From a virus: a stretch of DNA of 30,952 nucleotides. The stretch is taken from the UHGV virus genome UHGV-0110025; one strand, given 5' to 3'. Below the pieces are notes generated by a model that ran no database searches, was not told the DNA's origin, and saw only the letters and a program-made list of their open reading frames with translations. The translations under genes and the position numbers were made by a program. Positions 1,122-11,440 of this stretch are shown here, in pieces; within the stretch, counting starts at the first letter, position 1; every line of letters begins with the position of its first letter.

Positions 1122-1460
1122 TCATTCGCAAAGTGCTGTCGCAGCATCCATTACGGGATCCAAAGGAATTTTTACTCCTTCATAATCCGGGCTATCTTTC
1201 CAAACAGTATCAATATCGCTCCCCTCAAGCTTTCCAGACTTTACACCATCAATAGCAAACCCATTTAATGGGTATCGGTCATCTGTTGCTTTGTCGTACA
1301 CAAAGGCATATCTACCATTAACACAAGACACCGTAGCTTTTTCAAAAGTTAACGGCCAATCATCACCAAACTTAGCACCGTCTAAATCCTGTGTTTTTTC
1401 AGCGGCTGATGCACCGAAAGAAAGTGAAAGAAATAAAGCTAAAAAAAGCTTACGTTTCAT
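1122..1460 (-). CDS. Small secreted protein (about 113 aa) with a cleavable Sec signal peptide (MKRKLFLALFLSLSFGASA|AEKT). Moron inserted between int and C. Start taken at MKRK, not the longer ORF-track start, which overlaps C.
   Basis: Positive n-region, hydrophobic h-region and an ASA-AE cleavage motif. Local GC is lower than in the flanking int and C genes. P2 itself has no gene at this position. Confidence 0.6.
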   Translation of the reverse strand: MKRKLFLALFLSLSFGASAAEKTQDLDGAKFGDDWPLTFEKATVSCVNGRYAFVYDKATDDRYPLNGFAIDGVKSGKLEGSDIDTVWKDSPDYEGVKIPLDPVMDAATALCE

Positions 1461-1468
1461 AATGTCCC

Positions 1469-2305
1469 TTATACGTGTTTTTCCAATGTGAAAATTACAG
1501 CACCTACTGGTGTGATATCTGTAATGCTGCATTCAAACTCGGCAGACTTATTTGACAACCTGACTTTTCCGCCGGGAAGACGAATTACATCAAAAACATC
1601 AAGAGCGCCGTCAATATCAATTAACCAACGCCCATTACTTATGTTCGAAGCAGAACGGTTGACAAGCCAAGAGGCTCCAACACCTTCAACAAAAATCAAC
1701 TCCTCTGAGTCAGAGGGTATCATCGAGGGGTCTGGATGCCATTCGCCAGCGTCCTTAAGCTCACCCGCTTCAAGGCGAAATTTTTTAATTGAAAAACTTG
1801 ATGTGACCATTTCTCTGTTAGTTCGCATTTGCCCCTTGCCGGTTGCTAACCATTCCAGCGAAACACCAGTATCAAGGGCACAAGTAACAACTACATCGCC
1901 TGGGAAAAAATCACGCCGAACCCATGTGCTAATTGTTCCAGATGATATACCGAGTAAATCACCCAGCTCCTTTTGCATAGAAAAACCGTAAGCATCAAGG
2001 ATGCGTCTCAGAACAGGTTTACCACCTGAAGCCATGACCTTTTCATAAAGCTCTTTGCCCTTCAGGGTCGCACGTGAAGAGTTTGCTTTTGCAAGCTCCC
2101 CTGTCACTAACCATCCGATATCTGCGCCCGTTTCAATAGCACATTCAACAAATACATTGCCCGGAACGCTATCTCTGGCAAGCCAACTGCTTATGTTGTT
2201 GGCATAAATACCAAGTTTTTCGCCAAGTTCTTTTTGCGAGCTAAGTCCATAAGCCGAAAGGATTCTTTCGATAGCCGGAGCCGCACCATCTCCAAATTTA
2301 GCCAT
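1469..2305 (-). CDS. Immunity repressor (C/CI-type) carrying two tandem N-terminal CI-type helix-turn-helix domains and a C-terminal oligomerisation-like domain.
   Basis: There is an internal repeat: RILSAYGLSSQKELGEKLGI..SSWLARDSVPGNVFVECAIETGADIGWLVTGE versus RILDAYGFSMQKELGDLLGISSGTISTWVRRDFFPGDVVVTCALDTGVSLEWLATGK. Position and leftward orientation with int match P2/186 C or CI. No Ser-Lys S24 autocleavage motif is evident. Confidence 0.8.
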   Translation of the reverse strand: MAKFGDGAAPAIERILSAYGLSSQKELGEKLGIYANNISSWLARDSVPGNVFVECAIETGADIGWLVTGELAKANSSRATLKGKELYEKVMASGGKPVLRRILDAYGFSMQKELGDLLGISSGTISTWVRRDFFPGDVVVTCALDTGVSLEWLATGKGQMRTNREMVTSSFSIKKFRLEAGELKDAGEWHPDPSMIPSDSEELIFVEGVGASWLVNRSASNISNGRWLIDIDGALDVFDVIRLPGGKVRLSNKSAEFECSITDITPVGAVIFTLEKHV

Positions 2306-2797: not shown

Positions 2798-2829
2798 ATT
2801 TGATTATGCAAGTTAGAGGGAATTTAACC

Positions 2830-3339
2830 ATGTTTGATTTTCAGATTTCTAAACATCCTCACTATGACGAAGCGTGCCGGGCTTTTGCGCAGCGTCACAA
2901 CATGGCGAAGCTGGCCGAGCGTGCGGGTATGAACGTTCAAACGTTACGTAACAAGCTCAACCCAGAACAGCCTCACCAATTCACACCGCCTGAATTGTGG
3001 CTGCTGACTGACCTGACCGAAGACTCAACCCTCGTTGATGGCTTTCTGGCGCAAATACATTGTCTGCCATGCGTGCCGGTTAATGAGCTGGCTAAAGAGA
3101 AATTGCAGTCTTATGTGATGCGCGCAATGAGTGAACTCGGCGAACTGGCGAGCGGTGCGGTATCAAATGAACGTATGACCTCTGACCGCAAACACAGCAT
3201 GGTTGAGAGTGTTAATGCAGGCATCCGCATGTTGTCTCTGTCGGCGCTGGCGTTACAGGCGCGTCTACAGGCTAACCCGGCAATGTCGAGCGTGGTTGAT
3301 ACCATGACCGGCATCGGCGCAACATTTGGTTTGGTATGA
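2830..3339 (+). CDS. cII: 186-type CII lysogeny-establishment regulator (phage regulatory protein CII family), 169 aa. Start taken at MFDFQ, not the upstream TTG/ATG of the ORF track.
   Basis: Sequence MFDFQISKHPHYDEACRAFAQRHNMAKLAERAGMNVQTLRNKLNPEQPHQFTPPELWLLTDLTEDSTLVDGFLAQIH is essentially the coliphage 186 CII N-terminal domain. SD gaggga lies 9 nt upstream of the 2830 ATG. Confidence 0.85.
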   Translation: MFDFQISKHPHYDEACRAFAQRHNMAKLAERAGMNVQTLRNKLNPEQPHQFTPPELWLLTDLTEDSTLVDGFLAQIHCLPCVPVNELAKEKLQSYVMRAMSELGELASGAVSNERMTSDRKHSMVESVNAGIRMLSLSALALQARLQANPAMSSVVDTMTGIGATFGLV

Positions 3340-3547
3340 GGTGTTTATGCTGAAAAATGAACCCTCATTCGCATCTCTGCTCGTTAAACAAAATCCAGGT
3401 ATGCATTACGGTCACGGCTGGATCGCGGGTAAAGATGGTAAGCGCTGGCACCCGTGCCGCTCTCAGTCTGATTTACTGGCTGGCCTCTCTACTCAAAAGC
3501 TGGGGGAATCATGGCTATCGAAGCTGTTTCCGCGACTATTCCGCTAA
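3326..3547 (+). CDS. Small early-operon protein of unknown function. Alternative start at 3347 (MLKNEPSF...).
   Basis: ORF in the early operon, overlapping the cII stop. Position is analogous to fil/dhr-like small genes of 186. No recognisable motif. Confidence 0.4.
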   Translation: MVWYEVFMLKNEPSFASLLVKQNPGMHYGHGWIAGKDGKRWHPCRSQSDLLAGLSTQKLGESWLSKLFPRLFR

Positions 3548-4365: not shown

Positions 4366-6588
4366 TTGGCTGTTCAATTCGCTTATCCGTGGAATGCTCC
4401 ACGATCGGCTATAGCCAGCCCATACCTTACTTATAAGCAACAGCATCGCCGCGACCGTATGTTCGCGGCGATGCTGCATGCTAAAAAGGTGCTTTCTCTC
4501 CAGCCCGACTGCGTGCGGTTAGATGTTTATCGCACTGCGGCAGTGCTGGAGCAAAATCAGGGCATTCAACGAGCCAATGCCTTTTTGATCAGCTTCTGCA
4601 AAAAGGCATTGCCGCGTCTTGAATTGGTCGCAAAAAAATACGAATGCGCGGGTATCAACAGCAAGGTATCAACCTCTGTTTTTGGAAGTCATTTTGATAC
4701 CCAGCTTATGCAATATCTGGCGTCACGCATGGTTAATATGGTCGCCCGATATAACCGCCTCCCGGATATGTCGCGCGCTGATGTTGACCTGTTGGCCGCC
4801 GATATTGCTAATTTCATTCGTGGTGAACTTGCCAACATTAATGACCACGGATTCGGCGAGCTTAAAACGCTGTACACCTGGTATAATCGTGCTGGCTTTA
4901 TTTCCCTCCAGTTCAACGTTATCCCCCCCCATTGGGATCGGGTTGCAAAAAAATATGTTGGCGCGGATGAAATCGCACCGGCTATCGCCAAGATGTTTAA
5001 CGATGGGTGGTGGCGTGGTCGTTTGCGCCGGGTTGCAGCTACGTGGCGCGAACACCTGCAAATTGCAGTCGGCAACGTCAGCAAGAAAAAAAACACCTAT
5101 GCGAGTAAAAACTGCGTGACTGACTGGCGTGAACAAAAGCGCCGAACTCGTGAATTTCTCAAAGGTCTGGATCTCGAAGACGAAGACGGCAACCGTATCA
5201 GCCTGATTGAAAAATATGATGGCTCAGTTGCTAACCCTGCGATTCGCCGCTGTGAGCTCATGACTCGCATTCGTGGGTTTGAAAACATCTGTAATGAGCT
5301 CGGTTATGTCGGTGAGTTTTACACTCTGACCGCGCCGTCGAAATATCACGCCACGACTAAAGCCGGTTACCGTAACAGCAAATGGAGCGGTGCCTGCCCG
5401 GCTGACACGCAAAACTATCTAACTGATATCTGGGCGCGTATCCGTGCCAAACTGCATCGGGAAGATGTCCGTATTTTCGGTATTCGTGTCGCCGAGCCCC
5501 ATCACGACGGTACTCCACACTGGCACATGCTGATGTTCATGCTGCCGGAAGATGTTGAATATGTTCGCTCCATCGTCCGTAAATACGCGTGGAAAGAAGA
5601 CCGCCGCGAACTGAAAAGCGATAAGGCAAAAAAAGCACGTTTCCACGCCGAGTCCATTGACCCGGAGAAAGGCAGCGCAACCGGCTATGTTGCTAAATAC
5701 ATATCAAAAAATATCGACGGTTATGCTCTCGATGGTGAAACCGATAATGAAAGCGGTGAACTGCTGAAAGAGACAGCCCCCGCCGTTTCAGCATGGGCTT
5801 CGCGCTGGCACATCCGTCAGTTTCAGTTTATCGGTGGTGCGCCGGTGACGGTTTACCGTGAGTTGCGTCGCCTCGCTGATACCGAAACCGCGCACGGACT
5901 GAGCGTTGAGTTTGCCGCCGTCCATGATGCCGCCGACGCTGGTGACTGGGCTGGTTATGTTAATGCGCAGGGTGGACCGTTTGTCCGTCGCGATGATTTA
6001 CAGGTGCGCACACTGTATGAACCACGTACCGAGCTTAATCAGTACGGTGAGGAAACGGTATGTATTAAGGGGGTCTACGATTCCTCCATAGGTGCAGGTA
6101 GCCCGATTTTAACCCGGCTCACTCAGTGGAAGATTGTTCCGAAGCATGCTGTTGATTTGGCCGTTGACCTTCAGGACGGCAAAGCCGTCCCTCGGAGTTC
6201 TGTCAATAACTGTACGGGAAGTGAAAGCGATCCACCGATACTGGATTTAACAAAACCACAGAGTCGGCGCGAAAGACGAGAGCTGACCAACCGACTCAGG
6301 AAGCAAAAACCAGCAATACGGCGAAAATTCGTCCACGGAATGGATGAGCAAAACGCAGCTATAGCGAAAACTATCGACGAGATACATCTGACAACCAGCA
6401 TCACAATCAGCCGGGGCGAAGCCCTGCACCTGATGGCAGGTGGGAAAAGCTGTTTTGATGGCAAATGGCTAAGGGGAACATCCAAAGGGGAGATATTTTC
6501 CACTGTCCCATCGAACCAAGCTAAAGCTAGTAAAATCCTCAATCGTGTTGCAGCGTTGGTAGAAGCATCAAAGTTAATAGATGATTAA
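4366..6588 (+). CDS. A: Replication initiation endonuclease gpA (rolling-circle HUH nickase).
   Basis: HUH motif HHDGTPHWHMLMF and catalytic tyrosine motif GYVAKYISKN. Size of 740 aa is close to the 761 aa of P2 A. Last early-operon gene. The C-terminal ~150 aa are lower GC and divergent. Confidence 0.9.
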   Translation: MAVQFAYPWNAPRSAIASPYLTYKQQHRRDRMFAAMLHAKKVLSLQPDCVRLDVYRTAAVLEQNQGIQRANAFLISFCKKALPRLELVAKKYECAGINSKVSTSVFGSHFDTQLMQYLASRMVNMVARYNRLPDMSRADVDLLAADIANFIRGELANINDHGFGELKTLYTWYNRAGFISLQFNVIPPHWDRVAKKYVGADEIAPAIAKMFNDGWWRGRLRRVAATWREHLQIAVGNVSKKKNTYASKNCVTDWREQKRRTREFLKGLDLEDEDGNRISLIEKYDGSVANPAIRRCELMTRIRGFENICNELGYVGEFYTLTAPSKYHATTKAGYRNSKWSGACPADTQNYLTDIWARIRAKLHREDVRIFGIRVAEPHHDGTPHWHMLMFMLPEDVEYVRSIVRKYAWKEDRRELKSDKAKKARFHAESIDPEKGSATGYVAKYISKNIDGYALDGETDNESGELLKETAPAVSAWASRWHIRQFQFIGGAPVTVYRELRRLADTETAHGLSVEFAAVHDAADAGDWAGYVNAQGGPFVRRDDLQVRTLYEPRTELNQYGEETVCIKGVYDSSIGAGSPILTRLTQWKIVPKHAVDLAVDLQDGKAVPRSSVNNCTGSESDPPILDLTKPQSRRERRELTNRLRKQKPAIRRKFVHGMDEQNAAIAKTIDEIHLTTSITISRGEALHLMAGGKSCFDGKWLRGTSKGEIFSTVPSNQAKASKILNRVAALVEASKLIDD

Positions 6589-6662
6589 TTTACATCCATA
6601 TCATGCACATACAATACCTGCATGATTCACTTTTTCTCTTCCCATCATTTGCTAATACGTGA

Positions 6663-6682
6663 TACTGTACAAATATACAGTT
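6663..6682 (+). promoter_or_regulatory. LexA (SOS) box TACTGTACAAATATACAGTT (CTGT-N8-ACAG), overlapping a putative promoter (-35 TTGCTA 6649-6654).
   Basis: Perfect CTGT-N8-ACAG palindrome with an AT-rich spacer, 20 bp upstream of a small ORF with an SD (gggaggg). Position is analogous to the LexA-controlled tum promoter of coliphage 186 at the right end downstream of gene A. Confidence 0.6.
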
Positions 6683-6702
6683 ATCATATTGGGAGGGATT
6701 TC

Positions 6703-6888
6703 ATGGTTGGGGAACATTTCAGCCGAACGCAGCAAAAGTGGGCTTGTGTGCAATTCATTGCCGAGATATCTCTGGTTGCAAACTGCAAGCCAGCAGACTT
6801 AAAGCTTGCGCTTACTCTCATTGCTGATCTGGCAAACAGCGAAAACAACGAAGAACCAGAAAATGAAGTCTTTTATAAGGCTGAATAG
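6703..6888 (+). CDS. Small SOS-controlled ORF (61 aa from the MVGEHFS start). Candidate Tum-like antirepressor or SOS-induced small protein.
   Basis: SD gggaggg sits 5 nt upstream of the ATG, immediately downstream of the LexA box. It has an acidic C-terminus. The antirepressor assignment is by position only (inference). Confidence 0.4.
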   Translation: MVGEHFSRTQQKWACVQFIAEISLVANCKPADLKLALTLIADLANSENNEEPENEVFYKAE

Positions 6889-6890
6889 GT

Positions 6891-7025
6891 TATGAAAATT
6901 AATCTCACATTGGATAAGAAACAAAAACTAGGCCGACCGGTTATTGATGCCTTTCAATGCGAATTGACCAAGAGGACACTGTCTATTTTTCCGTCAACAT
7001 GTGGTGCCGTCAAGAGAGCACTATG
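6891..7025 (+). CDS. Possible 44-aa micro-ORF (MKINLTLDKKQKLGRPVIDAFQCELTKRTLSIFPSTCGAVKRAL).
   Basis: It starts 2 nt after the preceding stop, and its stop overlaps the next ATG (ctATGAgt). Weak SD and no homology recognised. It is below the ORF-track length cutoff. Confidence 0.2.
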
Positions 7026-7148
7026 AGTGGTGCTGAGTTGATGGAGTTTGATATAGATTCAGATCGCGAGGCGCTTGATGGTATTCTCCAAGAAATCTGG
7101 GAAGACGAGCAGTTGGCGGTAGTTAATGACAGAATGTGCAGACCATAA
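7023..7148 (+). CDS. Possible 41-aa acidic micro-ORF (MSGAELMEFDIDSDREALDGILQEIWEDEQLAVVNDRMCRP). The ORF track gives a longer 63-aa version from 6957.
   Basis: ATGA-overlapped with the upstream micro-ORF. Highly acidic. Speculative. Confidence 0.2.
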   Translation: MSGAELMEFDIDSDREALDGILQEIWEDEQLAVVNDRMCRP

Positions 7149-7196
7149 CCCTATGTCTAGTTGCACGGAGGTTAGAAAAAATGCTGTCCGAATTAG

Positions 7197-7215
7197 CCCT
7201 CTCTCAGAGGGCTAT
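7197..7215. terminator. Perfect 8-bp hairpin agccctct-ctc-agagggct. It is flanked on both sides by the direct repeat aaaaatgctgt (7180-7190 and 7223-7233) and followed by a short T-run.
   Basis: Read directly from the sequence. It lies between the SOS micro-ORF cluster and the cargo operon. It could be a terminator or insulator, or a protein-binding site. Confidence 0.3.
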
Positions 7216-7271
7216 GAATTAAAAATGCTGTTTTTGATATGTTAACCTCTTAACAGTTTCATCTTTAAATC

Positions 7272-7299
7272 TTGTAAAGTAAAACTTTGCGTTTATGAT
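7272..7299 (+). promoter_or_regulatory. Candidate sigma70 promoter for the cargo operon: -35 TTGTAA (7272-7277), 16-nt spacer, -10 TATGAT (7294-7299).
   Basis: Good match to consensus in an AT-rich leader about 50 nt upstream of the 7347 start (SD aaggag). Confidence 0.3.
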
Positions 7300-7346
7300 T
7301 GATAAAAATTAAAAAAGTATGAAGAGGCTGTAAAGGAGTTTTATCA

Positions 7347-7862
7347 ATGCCTGGATTCCAAAATGCACAGCAAAATCAATTTGATGATCATGCTCCAGAA
7401 ATGGAGATAAACTTAATCGTAGATGTTGCTGAGCAGCCCGTAGCCTTTACCTATCAATATAGTGAGCAAATTAGCCACCTTGCACCGCAATGTCCGCCAG
7501 CAGAAGCGATTGAATGTGACAAAGAATGCTGGCGCTTCACTCTCAATCCGATAACGGACAGTTGCTTTTGGCCTCCAAAAAGAAGGGTTCCTGAGAGGGT
7601 TGCCTCAGACAGTCAGCAGGAGTGCTCTATGTGGGCGTTGTCTATGTATGAATCAGAGCGACAAGCTGTAGTCGCTTATTCTGGGCTTTCTAAGTCAGTG
7701 AGAAATATTAAGAAAACAATTGGAGATCACCTTGCAAGAGGCACGGTAGCTTGTGGTGATGGTAGATGTATGCCTCCAAATAGAAAAGGCCATTTTGACT
7801 TTCATCCATATTTAGATACTGAGTTCCCTGATGGCTTTCAGGTAATAAGAGCATTACCATGA
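7347..7862 (+). CDS. Cargo gene 1 (171 aa), Cys/His-rich hypothetical protein. Low GC. First gene of a two-gene operon in the P2 tin/old hotspot position.
   Basis: SD aaggag 8 nt upstream. Cysteine-rich segments (CPPAEAIECDKEC, CGDGRC, HFDFH). GC is clearly below the backbone. No recognised family. Confidence 0.6.
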   Translation: MPGFQNAQQNQFDDHAPEMEINLIVDVAEQPVAFTYQYSEQISHLAPQCPPAEAIECDKECWRFTLNPITDSCFWPPKRRVPERVASDSQQECSMWALSMYESERQAVVAYSGLSKSVRNIKKTIGDHLARGTVACGDGRCMPPNRKGHFDFHPYLDTEFPDGFQVIRALP

Positions 7863-8947
7863 TAAAATTAGATGCTAAAAGAATCACTGCACCGGAGGTC
7901 GGAGATTACTCGTGGTATTCTGACTTGGTGTATTTTGATGGACCACTGATTTGTTTATTTCGAGGAAGTGGCTATAAGGATGCTCTTTATGTTTGGCTTG
8001 ATAATTCAACCAGAGCCAACCGCTGGTGTTTAATACCTGTATCAAGGTCAACTTTAGATTCCTATCTTAATCAAAGAATGAGTCTAAGAGAAATCATACA
8101 ATCAAACGAATATGTTTATATTTGCAATCACTTTGCAGAAACAGGACGAAAAAATTATAGCCGTCTGAGCGTAGATGATTTCCCTGAGGAATATATGCCT
8201 GATGCTGACTCATATTTATATGAAGAAATATGCACCGATGACGCACTATTGTTAAAGCAAGAACGCACATCTAGCTATATGCTAGGACTGGACAACCAGT
8301 TGTTTATAAATGATTTATCAGAAATTCCAAAAATTTTCGAACAATTGTATTCTTTCCACTATGGACTTGCCCACTTGGGCAGAATTTCCATTAGAAATAC
8401 CATGCTGCGATTGATGGGTAGTTGGACTGGTGGATTCTCAGCAGTAAATATTTTCACTGGTTTAAAGAATGTCATTCCTGTCCTGCACCGCCCAGAAGTT
8501 AGCTCACTTCAATATAACTCCCCCGGACATATTGAATTGAACTTGCTTCCTGACTTGGCGCAGAGCGTTCAGGATGTATCTGTTCGTGTTGAAAATGAAT
8601 TTATTTATGACCGTTTAGAGAAAATCTATAAAAACAATTACACATACTTTAAAGATAAAGATCTATCAGGTTTTGATGAGGGTGGAGGAATTGAGTTAAG
8701 GAACATCGACTCTGAAACCACAGAAAATCTTCGTAAGCGTGTTAGAATTTTCTTTAGGTGTTTAGGTTGGAAAACCTATCAAGCGCAGTTTGATATGATC
8801 GGTGCCCATCCCTTGCAGCAGTTACGCGCAGTTATGGCGTATTACAGACGCCTGAAAACATTACGAGAATATATTGTGGCAGATAAATTATTCATTGGTC
8901 ATTCGCGAGTGCCGGTAGAGCAAATTACTGTGAATACTGAAAATTAG
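7859..8947 (+). CDS. Cargo gene 2 (362 aa), hypothetical protein, translationally coupled (ATGA overlap) to gene 1.
   Basis: Its start overlaps the stop of the upstream gene. Long low-GC ORF ending about 118 bp before cos. No recognised catalytic motif. Confidence 0.65.
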   Translation: MIKLDAKRITAPEVGDYSWYSDLVYFDGPLICLFRGSGYKDALYVWLDNSTRANRWCLIPVSRSTLDSYLNQRMSLREIIQSNEYVYICNHFAETGRKNYSRLSVDDFPEEYMPDADSYLYEEICTDDALLLKQERTSSYMLGLDNQLFINDLSEIPKIFEQLYSFHYGLAHLGRISIRNTMLRLMGSWTGGFSAVNIFTGLKNVIPVLHRPEVSSLQYNSPGHIELNLLPDLAQSVQDVSVRVENEFIYDRLEKIYKNNYTYFKDKDLSGFDEGGGIELRNIDSETTENLRKRVRIFFRCLGWKTYQAQFDMIGAHPLQQLRAVMAYYRRLKTLREYIVADKLFIGHSRVPVEQITVNTEN

Positions 8948-9064
8948 CTTTCTGCATGAGGATGCGTGAATCTGCATTATTTATTAATTCAACCCATAGA
9001 TACTGTAGGACGCAATAGGCATGGGCTTGAGACCAAAATGCAACTGCATTAAAACCGCCCCATT

Positions 9065-9200
9065 AAGCGGGTAGGCGTGGCGGGGAAAGCATTGCGCGCC
9101 AGCAGTGATGCGTAATAATAAAAATTATCCTCTGAGCGCGTCGTGATGGCGCTGTCGTGGTCGCTGCTGGTTCGTTGGTGGTCGGGTGTGTTCGTGCGCG
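9065..9200 (+). other. cos: Phage cos/packaging region. Putative 19-nt cohesive-end sequence GGCGTGGCGGGGAAAGCAT (9065-9083) followed by GC-rich terminase recognition sequence.
   Basis: Near-identity to the phage P2 left end as I recall it (GGCGAGGCGGGGAAAGCAC TGCGCGC...TCAGCGCGTCGTGACGGCAC). Here it reads ...GCATTGCGCGCC...TGAGCGCGTCGTGATGGCGC. Location between the end of the early region and portal Q matches P2. ORF-track ORFs 9049-9281 here are spurious. Confidence 0.6.
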
Positions 9201-9311
9201 TGAGACGCATCTGATGCGTGATGGTGGTGTGCATGGAAAAGCCACCAGGAGCAGCGGCTTTACAGGAGTGGCAGGATTCAAACTGCTAATTATGTTTCTA
9301 CTATGATTAAA

Positions 9312-10316
9312 CTAATTTACATGTATGTAGAGTTCACCGTCGCCAGACCAATCGGGACACTCTAAAACAAGCCCAAACTGCTTGAATATTTCATCAATGA
9401 TTATTGTTATCTCCCGAAAATCACCAAAACCTGTAATGTGCTGGTCATTAAACTTCCCATAAAGATTCTGAAAAGCAATGCCTAATTCTGATAATTGATA
9501 TCTTATCTTTGAGTTGGATAGTGTAAGGGATAGCTTTGGATCGTATTCTTTAATATTGATGTTTAGAGAATGGACATAACCCATCGCATAAGCATAAGAG
9601 TTGATGATTAGCCTGATACGTTTTTTTACTTCGAGATACATGTCATTCAGAGAAATATTACCGTACTTATAACCCCAGATGAGTTTTTCAATCTCGTCAG
9701 ATACTTCATTTACAACAGTGTCAAGATTCTCTAAAAATAAATCAATAGTTTCTTGAGGGGCAGACCCCGAAGACATGTAATTAGCGAGATATTCAGACCA
9801 TGCACGCGTGGCTGAGATAAGAAGCGCGCTACCATACTCGTTGACTGTAAAATTTTGGGCTAAGCATGTTAGTAAGTTTTTTTCATGTACGTGCACTAAT
9901 TCATGGTGAATGCGATGGATGACTGCGAGGTATCCTTCTTCTTTCAGTTTTAAGAAGCTACCATCATTGAAAAGCTCAACAAAAAAATCAATCGATAGCA
10001 CAAGGGTATATTCTTCACATAGCCCATCATTGCCAATTTTTGTTACTAACTGCCCGACGGCTGCGCCCTGTTTGCTATTGGTAAATGAACTAGGGGATTT
10101 GTGTTGGTAAGAGGATGTTACCTTTTGAAGAGCTTCACTGAAGTTATAGGAAACAATCACGCATTTTAATTTGGAGATATCAAGATTGAGATTTTTTGTT
10201 AAAGCTCGGATAGCTTCTAGTGTGAAATTACCGATATTATTTGCTTCTTGCTCAGTAGCGAAACCTTCGAGGGTTATTTTAAAATCAGTTTCCAAAATAT
10301 TAATCTCCGCGCCCAT
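9312..10316 (-). CDS. Cargo gene (334 aa), putative zinc metallopeptidase-like protein with an HExxH motif. Low GC. Inserted between cos and Q, co-oriented with the late P-Q transcript.
   Basis: Motif IHRIHHELVHVHEKN (HELVH = HExxH, extra His/Glu nearby, possible third ligand in VNEYG about 20 aa downstream). P2 has only about 100-150 bp between cos and Q, so this is an insertion. Confidence 0.6.
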   Translation of the reverse strand: MGAEINILETDFKITLEGFATEQEANNIGNFTLEAIRALTKNLNLDISKLKCVIVSYNFSEALQKVTSSYQHKSPSSFTNSKQGAAVGQLVTKIGNDGLCEEYTLVLSIDFFVELFNDGSFLKLKEEGYLAVIHRIHHELVHVHEKNLLTCLAQNFTVNEYGSALLISATRAWSEYLANYMSSGSAPQETIDLFLENLDTVVNEVSDEIEKLIWGYKYGNISLNDMYLEVKKRIRLIINSYAYAMGYVHSLNINIKEYDPKLSLTLSNSKIRYQLSELGIAFQNLYGKFNDQHITGFGDFREITIIIDEIFKQFGLVLECPDWSGDGELYIHVN

Positions 10317-10393: not shown

Positions 10394-11440
10394 TTATTCT
10401 GGGTTGTCGAGGGTGTACTCTTTGAACCTGATGACCTCCATACCGAGCCAGTCGTTTACCTCCCTGAACCTATCCTGCAGGGGTGACAGCTCATTACGCA
10501 CAAATACCTTTGCCACCTTCTCAACGTCACCGAGTGAACCGATATTCTCGGGCTTGCCGCCCATGAGCTGGAACGGTACGCGGTGCGCGTCCATCAGATC
10601 GGCGGCACTGGCCTTCTTGATGTTGAAAAAGTCATCCTTTGTGGCGACCTCGCTCAGTGGCACGATTTTGATGCCGTCCGGTTTTCCGCCGGGAGCGTAG
10701 AAAAACAGGTTCTTAAAGTTGCCGAGCCCTTTTGAGTTGCGCATCGCCTCGCGCAGCGATTCGACGTCGGTCGCGCTCTGCGCCGGGTCAGTCACATACA
10801 TGATGTAACCCGCGTGCGCGCCGTTCTGATAATACTTGCGGCGGAACAGCGTCGCGGATTCATTCAGCCAGGCGGAATTTAGCGCGCTGAGATATTCGGG
10901 CAGGCCGTAAATCTCCTGATTAATGTCGGGCTCCAGCAGGTGAAACACGGTATCAGGCGCGAACTCGTGCGGCTGGGTGAAGTTTTCCACAAACCAGAAA
11001 ATCGAATCGTCGACTCCGCGTCGGGTGTATTTGGCTGGCGAGGCCAGCAGTTTGATTAACTGGCCGGTGACGCTGTGGCGCTGCTCAAGAAAGGCGTTAC
11101 CGAACACCAGATAATCGAGCGCAAAGCGGCTGAAATCCTGACGGGATAACAACGGGTGCGGAATGTAGGTGCTCGCGAGCACGTTACGCTTAACATAAAT
11201 TGGCGAGCTGTGATGCACGGCAGAGCGCAGGCTCTTTGCCAGCCCTGAGAAGCTGACCGGCGGCTCGTACCATTTGCCGTTACTGATGCACTCGACGTAA
11301 TCCAGAATGTCGCGCTTATCGAGTACCGGCACCGGCTCGCCGAAGGTGAACGCTGTCGTTTTTGGCGGTGCGCTGGCGGTCAGTTGTTGTGGTTTGCTGG
11401 CCTTTTGTGCGTTGGCTTTACGGGATTTTTGTTTACCCAT
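10394..11440 (-). CDS. Q: Portal protein gpQ.
   Basis: AFTFGEPVPVLDKRDILDYVECISNGKWYEPPVSFSGLAKSLRSAVHHSSPIYVKRNVL closely matches P2 Q. It is adjacent to cos. Confidence 0.92.
   Translation of the reverse strand: MGKQKSRKANAQKASKPQQLTASAPPKTTAFTFGEPVPVLDKRDILDYVECISNGKWYEPPVSFSGLAKSLRSAVHHSSPIYVKRNVLASTYIPHPLLSRQDFSRFALDYLVFGNAFLEQRHSVTGQLIKLLASPAKYTRRGVDDSIFWFVENFTQPHEFAPDTVFHLLEPDINQEIYGLPEYLSALNSAWLNESATLFRRKYYQNGAHAGYIMYVTDPAQSATDVESLREAMRNSKGLGNFKNLFFYAPGGKPDGIKIVPLSEVATKDDFFNIKKASAADLMDAHRVPFQLMGGKPENIGSLGDVEKVAKVFVRNELSPLQDRFREVNDWLGMEVIRFKEYTLDNPE

Follow-up and report, generated by a model that had tools for sequence, protein, structure and literature searches.

Directly downstream of the replication gene A, the virus genome UHGV-0110025, analyzed here over its whole stretch of 30,952 nucleotides (nt; hereafter, the window), very probably harbors the SOS operon of a P2-like prophage of the PSP3/186 type, comprising a gene for an antirepressor, tumA, and a broken DinI-like gene, tumB (Table 1). 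The arrangement is that of the already-described tumA/tumB module of Salmonella phage PSP3, a relative of the tum gene of coliphage 186, and its only peculiarity is the recent pseudogenization of tumB. Gene A itself (4366–6588) was called with Pfam Phage_GPA on an identical contig, and tumA starts 115 nt after it. The functional side of this reading, i.e., the binding of LexA to its operator, the binding of TumA to the CI repressor, and the inducibility of the prophage, is what we infer from family knowledge (186 and PSP3).

The LexA operator, TACTGTACAAATATACAGTT, was initially described as a “perfect LexA box” at 6663–6682, a description which is exact as to the sequence, the coordinates, and the core, CTGT-N8-ACAG; the full site, by comparison, follows the consensus TACTGTATATATATACAGTA at only 17 of the 20 positions (three mismatches). 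Taken alone, the bare core is weak evidence, since at least one copy of it is present in 23 of 100 shuffles, with a single occurrence in the window itself; a match as good as that of the full site was encountered in none of the 100 shuffles. On a weight matrix composed of 20 E. coli LexA sites, which do not represent a curated table, the box scored 3.9, genuine SOS boxes being in the range of 0.65–9.5 and the next best site in the 31-kb window at 13.5. The strongest and, in our judgment, decisive evidence for a LexA box comes from its conservation across the relatives, namely 29 tumA loci of different Enterobacterales genomes together with the phages PSP3 and vB_EcoM-613R3. CTGT-N8-ACAG is situated 37–43 nt upstream of the tumA start in 31 of these 31 relatives (60 nt in one locus with a shorter call of the open reading frame, ORF), and the DNA flanking the box diverges among them, in several cases to the point of being unalignable, while the core stays invariant.

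The promoter overlapped by this box is recognizable by its likeness to the SOS-dependent promoter p95 of phage 186, for which the GenBank record gives a −35 hexamer TTCACA, an 18-nt spacer, a −10 hexamer TACTGT, and a putative LexA site beginning at the −10. The corresponding block of the window, TTCTTCCCATC(A/T)TTTGC(T/C)AATACGTG(A/C)TACTGTA, aligns with that of 186, and the distance between the two hexamers is likewise 18 nt. A different pair, GTGATA-17-TATCAT (6659–6687), was the top pick of a scan with the sigma-70 consensus and was set aside: its −10 is not conserved in the relatives, hence the p95 homologue at 6639–6668 is the preferred assignment, made by homology. With either assignment, LexA would occlude the promoter.

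The first gene behind the operator, ORF1, opens with the ATG at 6703 and is closed by the TAG at 6886–6888, and its Shine–Dalgarno sequence, GGGAGGG, belongs to a GGAG-like motif conserved in the relatives. Judged by an identity of 87%, its 61-amino acid (aa) product is the orthologue of PSP3 TumA, whose gene occupies the same position and is annotated as “similar to 5' end 186 tum; UV induction of prophage” (UV, ultraviolet); the next PSP3 gene, tumB, is annotated as “similar to dinI and 3' end of 186 tum”. In the PHROGs collection, ORF1 matches phrog_1993 (E-value 5.7e-31), a family of unknown function; the searches of Pfam and NCBIfam yielded no family for it, and no related solved structure was found. 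An alternative 88-aa reading of ORF1 from 6622 was rejected, as it would begin upstream of the promoter and disagrees with the homologues, which are mostly 60–61 aa long. The TumA family comprises 140 homologue clusters, mostly of this length, across the Enterobacteriaceae (Salmonella, Klebsiella, Escherichia, Citrobacter, Cronobacter, Yokenella, Kosakonia, Pantoea, and others), and its core, ACVQFIAEVSLIANCKPxDLKLALxLIADLA, is almost invariant. A copy of tumA with ~85% identity, annotated as “hypothetical protein | DinI-like family protein”, occurs in approximately 79 of 5,426 complete E. coli genomes. The AlphaFold2 model of TumA is a low-confidence two-helix hairpin (residues 8–25 and 30–46; predicted local distance difference test score, pLDDT, 65), followed by a C-terminal tail (residues 47–61) which is rich in acidic residues and predicted, also with low confidence, to be disordered.

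The presumed target of TumA is the immunity repressor CI, in which two tandem CI-type helix–turn–helix (HTH) domains (PF07022) precede the C-terminal domain PF16452, as is the case in the 286-aa CI of PSP3. To the latter, the window CI shows 77% identity, and to the 192-aa CI of 186, which has one HTH, 33%. The Pfam search found no Peptidase_S24 domain in the window CI and, because CI is devoid of an autocleavage domain, some antirepressor would be needed if the phage is SOS-inducible. TumA was encountered in seven distinct phages of the phage database (PSP3, SEN1, SI22, SW9, Midge, RCIP0057, and 613R3), and the same seven are exactly those with a PSP3-type CI at an identity of at least 64%; all the other CI relatives in this database are at most 41% identical and lack TumA. 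This exact co-occurrence, although correlative, supports the view of TumA and the PSP3-type CI as a cognate pair. Several elements of the original prediction are borne out: a LexA operator overlapping a sigma70-like promoter (here, the −10 of a p95-type promoter, both promoter and operator aligning with their annotated counterparts in 186), a 61-aa ORF with a strong Shine–Dalgarno sequence directly after it, a 186-style Tum-like SOS module downstream of gene A, and a repressor (of the 186/PSP3 type, PF07022 plus PF16452) without an obvious LexA/S24 autocleavage motif.

Next to cI, between it and the integrase gene, there is an ORF of the DUF2511/YebY family (1122–1532, minus strand), placed as gp28 is in PSP3. 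It probably represents a lysogenic-conversion, or moron, gene expressed together with cI.

The two micro-ORFs following tumA, originally read as 44 and 41 aa long and overlapping by ATGA, do have these lengths and the exact overlap (7023–7026). Still, their consecutive matches to the DinI profile (phrog_189) and two indels identify them, at the level of sequence, as two halves of one frameshifted DinI-like tumB rather than separate genes. The first lesion is a 1-nt deletion between 7020 and 7023, so that codon 44 reads “-CT” versus TCC in 186 and a TGA comes in frame; the second is a 1-nt insertion, C7110, which converts the conserved end ...EDESWR-stop into ...EDEQLAVVNDRMCRP-stop and supplies ORF3 with an aberrant 12-aa tail. 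The start codon of ORF3 corresponds to an internal Met of the intact homologues. When the stretch 6892–7122 is repaired in silico, it encodes a 76-aa protein with 56 of the 76 residues identical to the C-terminal half of 186 Tum. On the Pfam DinI model (PF06183; cut-off 24.2 bits) the repaired protein attains 41.2 bits and ORF3 16.9 bits, with no match for ORF2; on the NCBIfam DinI equivalog, the repaired protein obtains 38 bits vs. the cut-off of 111. Since the ratio of nonsynonymous to synonymous substitution rates (dN/dS) in the comparison with 186 amounts to 0.07, strong purifying selection acted on tumB through almost its entire past. Programmed ribosomal frameshifting from ORF2 to ORF3 was considered and set aside as unlikely, since GCA-CTA-TGA offers no slippery heptamer and the ribosome would have to shift once more at 7110. 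The suggestion of a minimal, split, or novel arrangement is therefore correct as to the split and incorrect as to the novelty, since in PSP3 and Fels-2 the tum gene has already been described as split in two by a stop codon (PMC3121763).

The frameshifts in tumB are real and recent mutations. Four other metagenome contigs, obtained from different samples, carry both indels, and the 44-aa fragment was called on 16 contigs of several samples, which agree in their gene order and the longest of which measures 26 kb. It might be argued that the frameshifts are sequencing or assembly errors and that the real phage possesses an intact 76-aa tumB, given that single-base indels are the commonest assembly error and that the two indels cancel each other in length. 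This is exceedingly improbable: neither indel is located in a homopolymer run, and both recur in independent assemblies, made with different pipelines from different samples, which differ from the window by single-nucleotide polymorphisms elsewhere. No exact match to the frameshift junction was found in IMG/VR, and the metagenome scan returned one contig. A near-identical intact tumB was not found in the protein database, where the best intact relative, at 74% identity, is not close enough for dating the frameshifts.

It is also conceivable that the split tumB is still functional, with the ATGA-coupled translation yielding fragments which would reassemble the DinI fold or with ORF3 alone acting on RecA filaments. 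DinI contacts RecA through its C-terminal acidic helix, and ORF3 retains EFDIDSDREALDGILQEIWEDE, which is aligned with this helix; the same contact is named in the title of reference 28 in PMC3121763. Furthermore, the ATG of ORF3 overlapping the stop of ORF2 is a geometry allowing termination–reinitiation, and phage 186 is annotated with N-terminally truncated Tum products that “modulate SOS induction”. At the same time, two independent frame-breaking mutations within 231 nt have the look of decay, C7110 exchanges the conserved SWR end for an unrelated 12-aa tail, no Shine–Dalgarno sequence precedes ORF3, and neither fragment reaches the DinI cut-off. Likewise, tumB is absent from most tumA loci, and its split form is carried by near-identical contigs with no sign of maintenance. 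Function of the split gene is, on balance, distinctly improbable, and tumB is treated below as a pseudogene.

An intact tumB (76–79 aa) follows tumA in 7 of the 29 genome loci; it is truncated in one (L023) and absent in 21, where unrelated genes are found in its place. Since tumB is missing from most tumA loci, it appears to be dispensable, with the LexA box and tumA making up the constant unit and the DinI gene being an optional passenger. The optional character of tumB fits the observation that non-polar dinI deletions in the Gifsy prophages left induction unchanged (PMC3121763). The lineage of the window would represent a natural tumB knock-out and, together with the many tumA-only loci, points to an accessory part for the DinI half of 186 Tum in the induction switch.

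Two further observations were made in the tumA loci. In L023, a metagenome-assembled genome of Atlantibacter (~3180–3500), an intact tumA precedes a 54-aa tumB fragment and an out-of-frame remainder, an independent case of truncation which, considering the nature of the source, may be an assembly error. In L018–L022, L025, and L026 (Pluralibacter, Kosakonia, Enterobacter, and others), an ORF of 67 aa (MQVIAQQGDTLD...), neither tumB nor cargo, is located ~150–210 nt after tumA; it may resemble the P2 tail protein X. If so, the gene order around the SOS gene is different in those prophages.

The relationship of TumA to the N-terminal half of 186 Tum is less straightforward than that of the DinI halves. 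The second half of 186 Tum is DinI-like, suggesting a fusion of an antirepressor with DinI (Lemire et al. 2011, PMC3121763). The MAFFT alignment of TumA with the first half gives an identity of 29%, and a motif, V-x-x-I-A...C...D...A-L-x-L-I-A-[DE]-[LI]-A, is common to TumA and residues 14–42 of 186 Tum. The sequence link is weak and becomes apparent only with a profile; synteny and the shared promoter argue for a common origin of both. Between the window and 186, the flanks of the module (the promoter/operator and the DinI half, the latter at ~75–76% DNA identity) are well conserved, whereas the antirepressor part in the middle has diverged. This is how a specificity module tracking its repressor would look, and TumA, which occurs exactly where one type of CI does, next to a promoter and a DinI half that are both conserved, is an illustration of such a module.

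A number of points weigh against the interpretation of the region as a PSP3/186-type SOS operon with a tumA antirepressor. BLASTP of ORF1 vs. 186 Tum gave no alignment, and hhalign of the TumA family with residues 14–45 of 186 Tum gave an E-value of 1.5e-4 over 32 columns at 34% identity, the probability being only 52%. Run against 1.8 billion cluster representatives, the TumA profile recovered 35 clusters, made up of short proteins standing alone, with no fused Tum among them (a 137-aa match, P0149, was considered as a fused Tum and rejected, as it is devoid of a DinI-like C-terminus). As for the operator, two of its three deviations from the consensus, C at position 8 and T at position 20, are also differences from the PSP3 box, TACTGTATAAATATACAGTA, hence the affinity of LexA for the box of the window may be lower. 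The antirepressor activity of the upstream PSP3 gene rests on a personal communication (G. E. Christie, via Bunny et al. 2002) relayed in PMC3121763. Finally, the contigs with the split tumB are all 98.8–100% identical to the window and, on this sequence evidence, belong to one phage lineage, so they afford no ground for inferring selective maintenance of the fragments.

One could further suppose that ORF1 is SOS-induced without being an antirepressor, the prophage being induced by another route and TumA serving, e.g., in host takeover or exclusion. Such a role would agree with the lack of a Pfam or NCBIfam family and of a solved relative, with the unknown function in PHROGs, and with the faint link to the N-terminal half of 186 Tum. 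It is nevertheless very improbable: the position, the promoter/operator, and the downstream DinI partner are the same as those of 186 tum, TumA co-occurs exactly with one type of CI, the latter has no autocleavage domain, and antirepressor activity has been ascribed to the upstream gene of PSP3 (PMC3121763).

If ORF1 does act as an antirepressor, the operon can be envisaged to operate as follows. In the lysogen, host LexA would sit on its operator, over the −10 of the p95-type promoter, and block transcription. Upon DNA damage, activated RecA would provoke the self-cleavage of LexA, so the promoter would fire and the 61-aa TumA would be made. TumA would then bind the PSP3-type CI, itself presumably unable to self-cleave, and take it off its operators, thereby opening the early lytic promoter with the genes for an Apl-like protein (2426–2797) and CII (2800–3339), through gene A, and inducing the prophage. 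The product of tumB is expected to be a DinI-like modulator of RecA filaments, seemingly inactivated in the lineage of the window by the two frameshifts and represented by the 44-aa and 41-aa ORFs as remnants.

Among the known systems, 186, PSP3, Fels-2, and SopEPhi are UV-inducible because of tum, unlike P2, and rely on CI/CII rather than the C repressor of P2 (Lavigne et al. 2009, PMC2771037). PSP3 (AY135486; Eganvirus PsP3) shares with the window the SOS operon after the replication gene A, the same block of promoter and LexA box, a TumA start 40 nt after the start of the box, a tumB start 4 nt after the tumA stop, and the long CI with a duplicated HTH. It differs in that its tumB is intact (77 aa, 83.9 bits on Pfam DinI), whereas that of the window is broken twice, and in the downstream cargo, which is gp37/gp38 in PSP3 vs. 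PD-T4-10 in the window. The operon of the window appears to be a mosaic, because its tumB DNA is closer to the 3' half of 186 tum than to PSP3 tumB. The tum gene of 186 (CP95, p95) has in common with the window a LexA operator on the −10, a homologous promoter/operator, and the logic of an antirepressor (in the window, a predicted one) which keeps a CI without self-cleavage from binding DNA. However, 186 Tum is one polypeptide of 146 aa, whereas in the window, as in PSP3, the halves are separated by the TAG at 6886–6888, with a second start codon following at 6892. Compared with that of 186 Tum, the antirepressor half is only ~30% identical, which agrees with the value for the two CIs (33%). 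In 186, the operon continues with a partial terminator, t95a, and orf97, whereas in the window t95a is not conserved and PD-T4-10 occupies the position of orf97.

In their organization, with no sequence relationship claimed, GfoA/GftA of the Gifsy prophages (Lemire et al. 2011, PMC3121763) and AntC of N15 are also comparable: these are small antirepressors from LexA-controlled operons which include a dinI homologue, and they bind a non-cleavable repressor. In Gifsy, dinI comes first in the operon and the repressor is of the GfoR/DicA type, unlike in the window. The host DinI (PF06183; E. coli dinI) is matched by the repaired tumB from end to end and also has a LexA box upstream; unlike it, tumB is a phage paralogue, far below the NCBIfam equivalog cut-off and a pseudogene here. 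In practical terms, the labels appropriate to the region are LexA operator, tumA (antirepressor), and tumB/dinI pseudogene, in place of three hypothetical micro-genes; its significance beyond that is small.

Table 1. Features of the putative SOS operon and its presumed repressor partner in the window (positions are those of the 30,952-nt stretch).
Feature	Position	Strand	Basis
cI, 278 aa, PSP3-type immunity repressor, presumed target of TumA	1469–2305	-	PF07022 (two stretches) and PF16452
−35 hexamer TTCCCA of the p95-type SOS promoter	6639–6644	+	Aligns with the annotated 186 p95 −35 TTCACA (U32222 29020–29025)
−10 hexamer TACTGT, the first six bases of the LexA box	6663–6668	+	Aligns with the annotated 186 p95 −10 (U32222 29044–29049)
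LexA operator TACTGTACAAATATACAGTT	6663–6682	.	Sole LexA-like site in the window; aligns with the annotated putative 186 LexA site
Shine–Dalgarno sequence GGGAGGG of tumA	6691–6697	+	Read from the sequence; GGAG-like motif conserved in relatives
tumA (ORF1), 61 aa, predicted LexA-controlled antirepressor of PSP3-type CI	6703–6888	+	87% identity to PSP3 TumA
tumB (DinI-like) pseudogene	6892–7122	+	Ancestral stop TAG 7120–7122; DNA alignments with 186, PSP3, and 613R3
ORF2, 44 aa, N-terminal tumB fragment, TGA created by the deletion	6892–7026	+	phrog_189 (DinI) positions 71–113, E-value 1.4e-10
ORF3, 41 aa, C-terminal tumB fragment	7023–7148	+	phrog_189 (DinI) positions 116–144, E-value 2.2e-6
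9-bp G+C-rich hairpin TAGCCCTCT-CTC-AGAGGGCTA, no U-tract directly after	7194–7214	+	RNA fold

Downstream of the tumB remnant, the terminator scan of 6300–7700 found no canonical terminator, the t95a hairpin of 186 has no conserved counterpart in the window, and the Rfam search of 6300–9400 gave nothing credible. The G+C-rich hairpin predicted by RNA folding (Table 1) might serve behind the SOS genes as a weak terminator or as an element of RNA stability.

The SOS operon is immediately followed, at the position of 186 orf97, by two plus-strand genes of low G+C content, attributed by PADLOC to the anti-phage system PD-T4-10: A (7347–7862, 171 aa, E-value 6.5e-69) and B (7859–8947, 362 aa, E-value 3.3e-169). 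According to the 186 GenBank record, orf97 is a member of the SOS operon, and its expression from a plasmid blocks 186 infection. By analogy, the operon of the window might have been remodeled, so that the LexA-controlled transcript would run through the decayed tumB and the lost t95a into PD-T4-10 (7347–8947), with ORF3 acting on RecA as a translationally coupled minimal DinI-helix peptide, a combination which is considered unlikely. Were such read-through true, the anti-phage system would be DNA-damage-inducible, like orf97 in 186. A promoter-like site at 7272–7299, upstream of the PD-T4-10 genes, may drive them independently. Another contig (L044), otherwise near-identical, is shorter by ~34 bp in the spacer that separates the tumB remnant from PD-T4-10 A (window positions 7302–7335), a minor structural variant of the lineage.

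Further downstream, between PD-T4-10 and the portal gene (10394–11440, minus strand), an ORF of 334 aa (9312–10316, minus strand) occupies the stretch with the lowest G+C content of the region (0.34–0.41). It had no match in Pfam or PADLOC, and its place on the L044 contig is taken by two shorter ORFs (90 and 235 aa). This ORF is regarded as cargo in the variable region between genes A and Q and as a candidate defense or exclusion gene.

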